DNA from: Deltaproteobacteria bacterium | GTDB lineage: Bacteria > UBA10199 > JADFYH01 | Direction of reading: 5' to 3' | NCBI GenBank assembly: GCA_015233135.1 | Contig: JADFYH010000003.1 | Location: forward strand, 43,021-107,020 | Length of the DNA stretch: 64,000 nucleotides | In this document: piece after piece, positions 56,945-59,689 of the stretch | Layout of the letters: the number at the start of each line of letters is the position of its first letter | How positions within the stretch are numbered: the stretch's first letter is position 1 | Translations under genes and position numbers: made by a program | Notes under the pieces: model-generated | What the model was told of the DNA's origin: nothing | What the model saw: only the letters and a program-made list of their open reading frames with translations | The model's database searches: none

Positions 56945-59689
56945 ATGGTTTTATCCCTACAAACCCATTTGTCTTCTAGAGGCTGGTCTTTGGGAGAGGG
57001 CGCTTATCTTCATACGAGCCCTCGTTTAGCCCCAGCTCAAGCGAATAGGAATCTTGGGCAAAATCCAGAAGAAGCGCTTCAGCGTGCGGAAGTTTTTCTC
57101 CATCAAGAAACTCGCTGGGGGGATTCGCTTAAAAGTTTATTCGTCGAAGGTCTCCATTGTTTTACAGGAGGCTTTCAAATGCAGTGTTTTCAAGAATCTT
57201 TTGCCTGCTTGCGTTTGGGCCTATCGCAAAGCCTTCAACACCTTCGAAGTTTTGGAACTGAAGATTGGCAAGCTCGGGGCTTTAGAAAAATTCAAAATAC
57301 AAATGCTAGCCTTTCGATGATTAGGCAAATGGCCAATAGTCTGGCACAAGATCCCCGTTATCATTTCCGGGCCCAACGCCTTTTAGAACAACTCGAATAT
57401 GCCTCTGCCCTCAATGAAACAGAGGGAACTTTACGTCAGAATATTCCTCTGTTTGCGCGAAGTGGCTGGGAGCTTGCTTTTCCCCTGATTAATGCAGGAG
57501 CCTCTCTGGCGGGAACTTTTGGATCTTTAAGCGCGACGAGTTTGGGTCTTCGTTATGGAATCTGGGGCGCTGTGCTGGGAGGCGCGGCCAACGCGCTTTT
57601 TCAGGTGGGCATGCAATTGGGCCACGAATTTTATTTGGGGCAACATTTGTCTAAACGAGAACTGGCCGGAGAAATCGGCGAGGCCTTGCTTGCCTCTACC
57701 GCTTGCAGTGTATTGGCTTATGGGGCTGCAAATTTGGAGGCTACTGGAATCTTGCGTGCCACTTCCCCTCTTTTATGGCGAGGTCTTTGGGCCTTTACTA
57801 AATTTTCATCTGATGTAGCGATGGAATATTTCGTCAACTCACTCTCTTTGTGCAAGAGAATGCTTAGGCTGGAAGTACAAGGTTTTGGATTAGTAGGCTT
57901 GGGTTTGCTCAATAATGCCTTAGGCGAAGTAGGGGGCGATTTTTGGGGACACGGAGTGCATCGCATCAATCTACAAATTGAAACTTCTCAACACAACAAT
58001 TCCTGGAACGACATTTTTGAAAACCCTGAAGTGGCCAATGATAATGCGATGCCCTTATTTTTAGATCCTGTTCAAATGGCGGCGAATGACACTGTCCTCC
58101 CGTTAGAACTTTCAAAAGTGGTGGGGCAAGACTTTAGCGGTGAGGACGATCATCGCTTTATGGCAGCTGCAAATCACGCAAAGGGAAACCCTGTCTGGGT
58201 GGGCGCTGGAAGCAGGGTAGAGTATGTTGTAGGAGAAACTTTAAAAGATTTACAGGAACTAGGTGCGCAAGCTGTTTCGCATTCCCTTTCTTTAGACGAA
58301 CAGCTTGAACTCATTCAAAGAGGTTTATCGCAAGAAGATCCACTGGTCTATTGGTCTCAATATGAGGGCTTGAGTGAATTGAAAAATATTTATCCTCGCG
58401 GTGCGAATCCTGGATCTCTTTATCAGCGCCATCCCAAACGATTGCTCTTATTGATACAGGGATATTCTTTAGCTCAAAGGCTAGGTCTAGGAGAACTGGA
58501 ATGCATGGCGTGGGTGAATTATCTGGAGTTGCGTGCGCTGGCAGAAATGGGTTTTGCAGAACGCAGTTTGCAGCATTTAGAGGAAGCTGCACTGGAAAGT
58601 GTTTTTGAAGAATATAGAAATAGTGAAAAGGAATATTTTGAAGCCTTGGAAAAGGCCTCGAGAAATATGGCTCAATATATGGCTTATGTGATTTTTACGC
58701 ATCCGATCGGGGATGTGGCGGCCGAGGAACATCATTTAAGAGTGTTTAGAGAACGAGTGATTTATTTTTTAGCAGAATCTTACGAGGAAAATTTTCAAAA
58801 CGATTACAAAGCCTTCGAGCCCGGAGAGAAAGAAATATTGTGGAGTGAAATAGCGGCTCTGCATCAAAAAATTGGCCAATTAAAAAAAGAGTTTGGTGTG
58901 GCGGACAGATTAGCCCCAGCTGCGGAAGCAGCACCTCTTCTACAAGACAGGATAGAAGGCAGCTATTGGCGAATATTGCTTGAAAGGGATTGCTACAAAA
59001 AAATTGAGGGAGATTTTTTTGTGGGGCCTACCTCTGTGCTTTATCATAAATTTTTTACTTTTTTTGCCCGACAATTATTTCCGCAGTTTCCAAGGCAGGT
59101 CGAAAGGGATTTTGGCGAGGCCTGCGTTGCAAATTTGAGACGTCCCTCCCTGAGTGTGAGTTTAGAAGAATTGGAGCGAAAGATTCCAAGAGAAACTCAG
59201 GTTGCCAGTAACCAAAAGCCACTTTTGATGCTGGTGGGTGTTGGGCAAGATTTGAAAACCATAGAACGTTATGCCCGCTTAGGCCGCTACGATTTGCTAT
59301 TGATCGATTATTCTGAAAATATCAAAAGAATTTATGCGCTCTATCAAAGGGAGTTGGAAAGAATTTCTGGGCAAAACAAGGTGACTATTCGTTTTGAATC
59401 GATGGATATCAGAAATGCTGAAAGTGCCAGAAGATTTGAAGCCGCAATAGATCGTATCGATTATTTGAACATGACACCACAGAAGGGTGAAGATCATACT
59501 TCTCTCAGAACCTTGCTCAAATCGGGCGGGGTGTTTGTGGAGTTTTATCCTTTTCCTGTCAACCGGGAGGATCTTGGTTTCAACAAGGTCTTCTTTTCGG
59601 ATAATGTTGCTCCCATTCTTGGAACTTTATCCGAACAATGGGCCTATCCGCGAGGGAACGCGATTACAGTTTGGCGAAAGCCTAAATGA
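56945..59689 (+). CDS. Large hypothetical protein of 914 aa. The N-terminal module resembles that of the 2204-aa protein; the C-terminus is Rossmann-like, possibly a SAM-methyltransferase.
   Basis: Gly/Ala-zipper amphipathic region (ASLAGTFGSLSATSLGLRYGIWGAVLGGAANALFQVG). LNNALGEVGGDFWGHGVHRINLQIETSQH aligns with NNAAGEIFGDRFGELAHHQAGHWGIHFDLHLQQSH of the 2204-aa protein. The C-terminus has LLMLVGVGQD...DLLLIDYS (motif I / post-I-like). Confidence 0.6.
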   Translation: MVLSLQTHLSSRGWSLGEGAYLHTSPRLAPAQANRNLGQNPEEALQRAEVFLHQETRWGDSLKSLFVEGLHCFTGGFQMQCFQESFACLRLGLSQSLQHLRSFGTEDWQARGFRKIQNTNASLSMIRQMANSLAQDPRYHFRAQRLLEQLEYASALNETEGTLRQNIPLFARSGWELAFPLINAGASLAGTFGSLSATSLGLRYGIWGAVLGGAANALFQVGMQLGHEFYLGQHLSKRELAGEIGEALLASTACSVLAYGAANLEATGILRATSPLLWRGLWAFTKFSSDVAMEYFVNSLSLCKRMLRLEVQGFGLVGLGLLNNALGEVGGDFWGHGVHRINLQIETSQHNNSWNDIFENPEVANDNAMPLFLDPVQMAANDTVLPLELSKVVGQDFSGEDDHRFMAAANHAKGNPVWVGAGSRVEYVVGETLKDLQELGAQAVSHSLSLDEQLELIQRGLSQEDPLVYWSQYEGLSELKNIYPRGANPGSLYQRHPKRLLLLIQGYSLAQRLGLGELECMAWVNYLELRALAEMGFAERSLQHLEEAALESVFEEYRNSEKEYFEALEKASRNMAQYMAYVIFTHPIGDVAAEEHHLRVFRERVIYFLAESYEENFQNDYKAFEPGEKEILWSEIAALHQKIGQLKKEFGVADRLAPAAEAAPLLQDRIEGSYWRILLERDCYKKIEGDFFVGPTSVLYHKFFTFFARQLFPQFPRQVERDFGEACVANLRRPSLSVSLEELERKIPRETQVASNQKPLLMLVGVGQDLKTIERYARLGRYDLLLIDYSENIKRIYALYQRELERISGQNKVTIRFESMDIRNAESARRFEAAIDRIDYLNMTPQKGEDHTSLRTLLKSGGVFVEFYPFPVNREDLGFNKVFFSDNVAPILGTLSEQWAYPRGNAITVWRKPK

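Follow-up and report, generated by a model that had tools for sequence, protein, structure and literature searches.

A putative lineage-restricted family of mosaic proteins that share a helical N-terminal module and exchange the domains attached to it

A common module with swapped partners is a well-known principle. Polymorphic toxins and effectors are reportedly marked by their N-terminal domain, as is said of LXG in the type VII secretion system (T7SS), of MIX, FIX and RIX in the type VI secretion system (T6SS) and of Rhs/CDI proteins in work by Zhang et al. in 2012 and later. Signalling architectures likewise place one N-terminal domain (PAS, GAF, Cache or a four-helix-bundle sensor) in front of many outputs such as kinases, PP2C or sigma/anti-sigma domains. 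Here we describe a pair of large genes in a stretch of 64,000 nucleotides (the window; positions 43,021 to 107,020 of the 110,848-bp contig JADFYH010000003.1) from an NCBI metagenome-assembled genome (MAG) labelled 'Deltaproteobacteria bacterium', with locus tags HQM15_. One encodes a protein of 914 amino acids (aa), MBF0491502.1 (HQM15_01820), which is labelled 'hypothetical protein' in GenBank, and the other a protein of 2204 aa, MBF0491492.1, which is labelled 'FAD-dependent oxidoreductase'. An earlier, sequence-only reading of the window had proposed that both share an N-terminal module, that their C-terminal enzymatic domains are swapped and that they belong to a polymorphic effector or toxin family.

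As in polymorphic toxins, a conserved N-terminal module, which we call the head, stands in front of variable C-termini, several paralogues occur in a genome and breakpoints lie between the modules. Unlike in those toxins, we found no cognate immunity gene, no recognised secretion-linked N-terminal domain or partner, no toxin-type C-terminus and no arrays of orphan cassettes, and the neighbours of head genes are housekeeping genes. With signalling architectures the proteins have in common that the same N-terminal domain is fused to diverse recognised signalling outputs, and the head is predicted to form a helical bundle whose conserved polar residues could bind a ligand. In contrast to those architectures, the head is unrelated to known sensors and has a leader that is conserved and disordered, metabolic-type enzymes (amine oxidase, PPDK-like, methyltransferase) are found among the outputs, and no cognate response regulator is evident. 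Judged by its sequence relatives, the 914-aa protein is a member of a rare family of mosaic multi-domain proteins that is confined to one uncultured bacterial lineage.

A common head with exchangeable tails

The 914-aa and 2204-aa proteins have a homologous N-terminal module of ∼240 aa in common. BLASTP between the two returned a single high-scoring segment pair (residues 108–339 against 176–427, 25% identity, E=6e-6). Their Smith–Waterman score of 112 was equalled by none of 500 shuffles of each kind (means 43–46, maximum 93, z=8.8–11.5), the controls including shuffles confined to 10- or 20-residue blocks, by which local composition is preserved. A head hidden Markov model (HMM), built from 10 database relatives with the window sequences excluded, matched the 914-aa protein with E=5e-69 (aa 107–350) and the 2204-aa protein with E=1.6e-16 (aa ∼199–428), and found no other match among the window's 184 six-frame open reading frames (ORFs) of at least 80 aa. 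The pair of motifs that the sequence-only reading had aligned between the two proteins, LNNALGEVGGDF and IVNNAAGEIFGDRF, does align and turned out to be the most conserved block of the whole family, with N324, E328 and D332 invariant and A325, G327 and G331 nearly so. Across 12 sequences, nine alignment columns are invariant (L146, N216, Q220, C254, D290, E294, N324, E328 and D332).

A resemblance between two Gly/Ala-rich regions might also be a compositional artefact without any homology, and phmmer on the raw pair within the window, which gave E=0.002–0.02 with high bias scores, would agree with that. Nonetheless, shuffles that preserve local composition never attained the score of the pair, the independent family HMM matches both proteins, and the nine invariant columns extend through 12 sequences. 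On the shuffles and the independent HMM, which are evidence from sequence comparison, we regard an artefact as refuted and its remaining probability as negligible. Pairwise and profile alignment of the N-termini thus agree that the proposed similarity is significant. The Gly/Ala zipper that had been read into the same region stood in part: the richness is real (G+A+S 41–42% against 24% for the whole protein), but the small-xxx-small periodicity of a Gly zipper does not exceed the expectation from composition (P=0.13–0.19) and was rejected.

An exhaustive phmmer search over 1.84 billion cluster representatives of public data returned only 23 relatives. They split into a head-only and a cassette-only set, the cassette being the methyltransferase unit described below, and P0001 alone has both; 13 relatives match only aa ∼700–914, and ∼11 cluster representatives carry the head. 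In the 90%-identity protein clusters, the 914-aa protein is represented by a 56-aa fragment and MutL by a 50-aa fragment, and such short representatives may be the reason why homology searches never returned the window proteins. Four of the relatives (P0001, P0009, P0014 and P0017, with MBF049... accessions) belong to the MAG that contains the window, and the HQM15_ locus tag is shown for three paralogues annotated as hypothetical proteins. Together with the two window proteins, at least six head-bearing proteins are therefore encoded in one MAG.

The domains behind the head differ from member to member. In the 914-aa protein it is followed by a helical domain and a methyltransferase, and in the 2204-aa protein by a hydrophobic central region, a FAD amine-oxidase domain (aa 1380–1836, Pfam Amino_oxidase, 3.8e-16) and a histidine-kinase-like ATPase (aa 1829–2204, HATPase_c, 8e-14). 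Among the other paralogues of this MAG, P0001 (2311 aa) has a PPDK-like domain (PPDK_N), an internal methyltransferase cassette and a further extension; P0009 (3127 aa) has FHA, AAA_5 and VWA domains; P0014 (782 aa) has HATPase_c_3, a MORC-like ATPase; and the tail of P0017 (922 aa) holds no recognised domain. In other assemblies, the tail is PP2C in P0006 and P0024, a kinase-like ATPase alone (HATPase_c) in P0004, Amino_oxidase in P0010 and Sigma70_r2 in P0025.

Similarity breaks sharply at the borders of these modules. The tail of the 2204-aa protein is 59% identical to that of P0004, and its oxidase region 48.5% identical to that of P0010, whereas its head has no similarity to either of theirs that BLAST can detect. 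Conversely, P0004 and P0010 have heads that are 53% identical and tails that are unrelated, and P0001 and P0002 are 58% identical across 443 aa but unrelated beyond. The methyltransferase cassette, in turn, also follows N-terminal modules other than the head, of which there are at least three (N2 precedes it in six proteins and N3 in two, besides others). We also considered whether the head (N1) is homologous to N2, and rejected this at an hhalign probability of 0.1%. As read from these alignments, shuffling goes both ways: the head takes many tails and the cassette takes several N-terminal modules. The proposal of a common N-terminal module with swapped C-terminal enzymatic domains is thus borne out by at least six paralogues in one genome and ∼11 representatives overall, and the search for further paralogues yielded the catalogue of C-termini given above.

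Most full-length members begin with a leader of consensus M-x-x-V-x-T-N...GWGxGDxxYNHTSPRL, which AlphaFold2 (AF2) predicts to be disordered (aa 1–30). Separate phmmer matches to the leader were found in P0004 and P0008, and its conservation validates the annotated start codon of the 914-aa gene. The members align only loosely over aa 31–106. The head core was modelled by AF2 from a 12-sequence alignment, with a predicted local distance difference test score (pLDDT) of ∼71–90 in the core and 67.6 overall. In this model, the invariant polar residues lie at mid-height of four consecutive predicted helices, an arrangement that, from helix boundaries rather than coordinates, could possibly fit a buried ligand or metal site. 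A terpene-synthase-like metal site, to which the DxxxE and NxxxExxxD motifs might point, was dropped, as its sole support was a Foldseek match to aristolochene synthase at E=2.9. Searches of Pfam and NCBIfam with the head found nothing, and no PDB sequence matched it significantly; Pfam, NCBIfam, PADLOC and PDB sequence searches with the middle region of the protein likewise yielded nothing usable. A fold search with the head returned generic helical bundles only, again without a significant PDB match, and no sequence or fold relationship to any known sensor domain was found. The head is therefore an undescribed domain without a known sequence or fold relative. That of the 2204-aa protein belongs to a divergent subtype in common with P0009 (phmmer E=1e-27) and carries an insertion of ∼25 aa.

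Past the head, the linker of the 914-aa protein contains an A-N-D-x...P motif twice, at aa 364–367 (58034–58045) and aa 380–383 (58082–58093). A related motif, (A/P)-A-N-D/E-x followed by a nearby Pro, occurs 30–50 aa past the head in most family members, and P386 is kept in 11 of 12. From its recurrence, this motif could be a processing or docking site.

A divergent methyltransferase fold at the C-terminus

The C-terminal part of the 914-aa protein (aa 696–914) had been described as methyltransferase-like, and its predicted structure agrees with that. The AF2 model (pLDDT 84.2, predicted template-modelling score 0.81) has seven strands in methyltransferase order, including the methyltransferase-specific seventh strand after strand 6. 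When this model was compared with the PDB by Foldseek, the best 50 matches were all class I methyltransferases, with E values down to 8.6e-8, and 498 matches reached E≤0.001. The nearest solved folds are Trm11, TrmB/METTL1, NpmA/KamB-type A1408 16S rRNA methyltransferases, RebM/MitM and CmoM (4htf, 8joz), and AS3MT, MnmM and GidB are also among the matches; the N-terminal helical extension of the domain aligns with that of CmoM. By sequence, the top three PDB matches of the family profile were methyltransferases as well (E 0.005–0.011), in register from the N-terminal helix to strand 5, and the best match of the single C-terminal sequence of the 914-aa protein was a methyltransferase with E=0.034. 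For the relatives, the commonest weak Pfam matches were Methyltransf_11/12/24/25, all sub-threshold (best E 7e-4), whereas the 914-aa protein itself matched no methyltransferase model of Pfam or NCBIfam even at E≤10.

Like class I methyltransferases that use S-adenosylmethionine (SAM), the domain combines a seven-stranded sheet and flanking helices with a GxG loop after strand 1, an acidic residue terminating strand 2 and an LxxGG motif in strand 5. In motif I, all 14 sequences have G765 and G767, while the third glycine is replaced by Q, D, E or W and the acidic residue before the glycine loop by V or I. At least 90% of the family keep D788, with which strand 2 ends (LLLID). The strand-5 motif reads LLKSGG at 858–863 in the 914-aa protein and LLKPGG in its family form, and AYPxG at 900–904 corresponds to a C-terminal family motif, AYPxGNH. 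Unlike known class I methyltransferases, the domain lacks a match to any curated model and the third glycine of motif I, has a family-specific AYPxGNH motif and a preceding helical domain, and is set in giant mosaic proteins.

The glycine loop of the form GxGxx(D/E/W), instead of GxGxG, together with an acidic residue that closes strand 2 as in NAD binders, could also suit a Rossmann domain of the nicotinamide or flavin adenine dinucleotide (NAD/FAD) type, and the family profile has weak PDB matches over strands 1–2 to TrkA, UDP-galactopyranose mutase and NADH oxidase (E 0.4–1.6). That the domain is of this type and not a methyltransferase is nevertheless highly improbable, given that the top 50 structural matches are without exception class I methyltransferases, that the model has their seventh strand, that the best sequence-profile matches, running from the helix through strand 5, are methyltransferases too, that LLKPGG is a typical methyltransferase strand-5 motif and that the weak Pfam matches of the relatives fall on Methyltransf_11/12/24/25. 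As a predicted fold, aa 696–914 are confirmed as a class I SAM-methyltransferase fold, forming a new family within the known fold, and, as no curated model is significant on the 914-aa protein, its branch is a very divergent one.

Directly upstream of the methyltransferase domain lies a helical domain that is specific to the family. It was co-linear with the methyltransferase domain in 12 relatives by jackhmmer (a small database, so that this is supportive only), with a first-round match to P0005 at E=4e-4. These alignments indicate that the helical domain always precedes the methyltransferase and that the mobile unit consists of both together.

Possible roles of the head

For the function of the head, we consider the chances about even that it is an intracellular targeting, tethering or input (regulatory) module. 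The head would then bring varied catalytic or signalling outputs (methyltransferase, kinase-like ATPases, PP2C, FHA/AAA+/VWA, a sigma-70-like domain, amine oxidase) to one cellular site, or place them under one signal, and the 914-aa protein, if the modelled fold is active, would methylate some substrate at that site. The diversity of the tails would stem from domain shuffling among paralogues and not from toxin/immunity diversification. We favour an intracellular role because the tails are usual bacterial signalling outputs, namely kinase-type ATPases, PP2C, FHA, AAA+ and a sigma-factor domain, and because of the invariant polar residues of the head with their possible buried site. In addition, hydrophobicity scans of the 914-aa protein found neither a signal peptide nor a strongly hydrophobic segment, the neighbours are housekeeping genes that differ between members, and neither window gene is followed by a gene on its own strand. 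Several points weigh against this role. The function of the head is inferred from the accompanying domains only, the head itself is without a sequence or fold relative, and its AF2 model is of moderate quality (pLDDT 67.6, from 12 sequences). Sensor domains do not usually have a conserved disordered leader, which is rather the expected form of an export or packaging signal; in several members, the head is followed by paired segments of moderate hydrophobicity, as in secreted membrane effectors; and secretion-system genes were looked for in the window and four related loci only. For the methylation step, the missing third glycine of motif I counts in the same direction.

The sequence-only reading had instead taken the shared N-terminus with swapped C-termini as the hallmark of a polymorphic effector or toxin family, a claim for which we found no support, as immunity genes, toxin domains, known trafficking domains and cassette arrays were all missing. 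On such a reading, leader and head would be a delivery domain and the tails payloads acting in another cell, where the methyltransferase would modify a molecule of the target. The conserved head with its swapped tails and sharp similarity breakpoints, the several paralogues per genome and the conserved, disordered 30-aa leader would all fit this. The G/A/S-rich, nearly uncharged helices at 174–230 recall the hairpins of pore-forming or translocator domains, paired hydrophobic segments, if only moderate ones, follow the head in several members, and a classical signal peptide is missing, as in substrates of the type III secretion system (T3SS) and the T6SS. In spite of this, no immunity-like gene lies downstream of either window gene, as both meet a convergent gene (the S8 protease gene and tatC, respectively), and loci L081–L084 have no conserved small downstream ORF. 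Pfam and NCBIfam give the head no known trafficking domain, and among the tails there is no toxin family: their domains are regulatory, and a sigma-70 region 2 tail has no obvious use as a toxin. Sizes of up to 3127 aa, with AAA+ and VWA modules included, likewise count against it, and neither the window nor the four related loci contain secretion-system genes. PADLOC gave no match for the 914-aa protein or P0006 and only weak generic ones for the 2204-aa protein and P0009 (desaturase-like, IetA), and viral contigs hold no relative of the head module. We therefore consider a family of secreted effectors or polymorphic toxins unlikely. It is improbable, too, that the leader and the seven-helix head make up a delivery or translocation domain of a new class, marking an unrecognised repertoire of very large mix-and-match effectors in an uncultured 'deltaproteobacterial' lineage; these would leave the cell by an export system so far not linked to the head, and the methyltransferase would be one payload among several.

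Alternatively, the head might insert into the membrane as an anchor or pore, in the manner of colicins, Bcl-2 or Inc proteins, and its main task would then be to fix the tails to the bilayer and not to sense or regulate. The helices at 174–199 and 206–230 have one charge each and consist to ∼36–50% of G/A/S, and true hydrophobic segments occur elsewhere in the 2204-aa paralogue and in others. Two adjacent, nearly uncharged helices of ∼25 residues (aa 174–230) are also a feature of chlamydial Inc and bilobed-hairpin effectors, and several paralogues resemble Inc proteins in their paired hydrophobic segments past the head. However, the best 19-residue windows of the head range from +2.7 to +6.2 kcal/mol in all members by a crude Hessa-type sum and are not translocon-insertable, Kyte–Doolittle averages over helices 174–230 are 0.7, and a hydrophobicity scan found no Inc-like bilobed pair of transmembrane-grade helices in any head. 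In addition, the helices at 106–166 are highly charged, and the invariant residues are polar or acidic and form no hydrophobic face. The likeness to Inc proteins ends there: the hydrophobicity of the head is far below that of transmembrane segments, no T3SS was seen in the window and related loci, and the gene set is that of a free-living organism, with a cbb3 oxidase in the locus of a relative and full sets of cell-wall and haem genes in the window, unlike the chlamydial setting. A membrane-inserting head is thus unlikely, slightly more so than a delivery domain, and an intracellular targeting, tethering or input module remains our preferred interpretation.

Genomic surroundings and meaning for the family

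The coordinates of all features are collected in Table 1. Beyond the convergent S8 protease gene, the 914-aa gene is followed by a gene for a D-2-hydroxyacid dehydrogenase. The remaining window is chromosomal housekeeping, with genes for PNPase, MreB/MreC, penicillin-binding proteins, haem synthesis, EF-P, a DnaJ-like protein and PheA, as well as BatD/VWA genes.

Table 1. Features of the window and of the proteins encoded in it (positions in the window)
Feature	Coordinates	Strand	Basis or remark
914-aa ORF	56945..59689	+	start 12 nt past miaA, mutL further upstream
Conserved leader, aa 1–30, MVLSLQTHLSSRGWSLGEGAYLHTSPRLAP	56945..57034	+	13-member leader alignment; AF2 pLDDT 27–41
Variable helical region, aa 31–106	57035..57262	+	AF2 helices 30–101, pLDDT 45–83
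Head-module core, aa 107–350	57263..57994	+	predicted bundle of seven long helices, G/A/S-rich
Disordered acidic, Asn-/Pro-rich linker, aa 351–479	57995..58381	+	AF2 pLDDT <50 over aa 342–400
Family-specific helical domain, aa ∼480–660	58382..58924	+	iterated jackhmmer on family set
Divergent class I SAM-dependent methyltransferase fold (predicted), aa 696–914	59030..59686	+	AF2 and Foldseek; sheet from aa ∼760
Two G/C-rich palindromic REP-like hairpins	59735..59829	.	between the convergent 3′ ends of the 914-aa and S8 genes
S8 protease gene	59804..61480	-	Peptidase_S8 E=9e-52
2204-aa ORF	41083..47697	+	converges on tatC
Head core of the 2204-aa paralogue, aa 176–434	41608..42384	+	family HMM E=1.6e-16
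Tail of the 2204-aa protein	43000..47694	+	central hydrophobic segments, then two recognised domains

Head and cassette genes lie amid unrelated housekeeping genes, and no conserved neighbour was found in the window and loci L081–L084. In 80 miaA loci of other lineages, neither head nor cassette lay downstream of the gene; the only locus that scans of JGI metagenome contigs yielded was a small one with the cassette, none having the head, and a scan of viral contigs with the head alignment gave no match. In two relatives whose PNPase is ∼71–74% identical, a PAP2-PBP1-TatA-TatC block is followed by a giant gene, for a protein of 7145 or 5643 aa. These giant genes show sigma-70-like matches, to regions 2 and 4 (L083 10001–31438; L085 1–865), and the methyltransferase cassette is part of one of them. 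In the window (41083–48464), the 2204-aa gene adjoins tatC in opposite orientation and differs in content from the giants of the relatives. The site next to tatC may be a hot spot for giant mosaic genes. In another locus (L081 1–8235), the head-bearing P0002 gene adjoins a giant ORF of more than 2744 aa that runs off the contig end and shares a domain with the 7145-aa P0013 (E=4e-13). Overall, clustering of giant mosaic genes seems to be a trait of this lineage.

The sequence-only reading had also placed a secreted S8 protease convergently next to the 914-aa gene, and rightly so: the gene lies on the minus strand, and an internal Met followed by MKRILSLILGFFSLLFIPGNLQA reads as a signal peptide. 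The protease further has a Pro/Thr-rich linker, a Gly-rich tail (SGGSGGGCSL) and then a hydrophobic C-terminal segment; this tail resembles a signal for C-terminal sorting or anchoring. Among NCBIfam models, that of the T7SS mycosin matches the protease best, with 155 bits against a cut-off of 279; we took this as generic S8 similarity and dismissed it as evidence for a T7SS. No link was found between this neighbouring protease and the 914-aa protein.

The hairpin pair between the two genes, of the repetitive extragenic palindromic (REP)-like type, probably terminates transcription both ways. The G/C-rich palindrome CCCTCTCCC-N4-GGGGAGAGGG has eight copies in the window against none expected. 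The 23-nt sites lie at 15311, 15697, 28001, 28072, 37102, 48518, 55291 and 59807, with a related hairpin at 59735–59758. One copy is in frame within mutL, where it is translated as ...PNPLPQGERGLGRG..., another stands at the 3′ end of the S8 protease gene, and the paralogue P0014 has similar in-frame peptides (SPLPLGERVRVRG). The palindrome resembles a mobile REP-like hairpin whose insertion into coding sequence is tolerated.

Two further ORFs of the window were noted in passing. At 18320–22336 (+), a 1338-aa protein with AMP-binding, phosphopantetheine-binding and hexapeptide-repeat acyltransferase-like domains is a loading module like those of non-ribosomal peptide synthetases, fused to LbH repeats. 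At 39544–40968 (+), a 474-aa ORF without a family match is immediately upstream of the 2204-aa gene. Its listed start lies ∼110 nt inside the dnaJ-like gene, and an internal Met followed by the hydrophobic stretch MSLKWAFGFAGMVFLLLSS suggests a shorter, secreted protein.

For annotation, the gain is a very divergent branch of class I methyltransferases that current annotation models overlook and that in GenBank is labelled 'hypothetical'. The head is a new domain family with ∼11 representatives in 1.84 billion, yet at least six copies in one genome. With its two-way domain shuffling, the family is a clean natural case in which the assembly of giant mosaic proteins in uncultured bacteria can be studied. 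If the head were a delivery domain, it would define a new effector class; if it is an input or targeting domain, it would point to an unrecognised regulatory hub.

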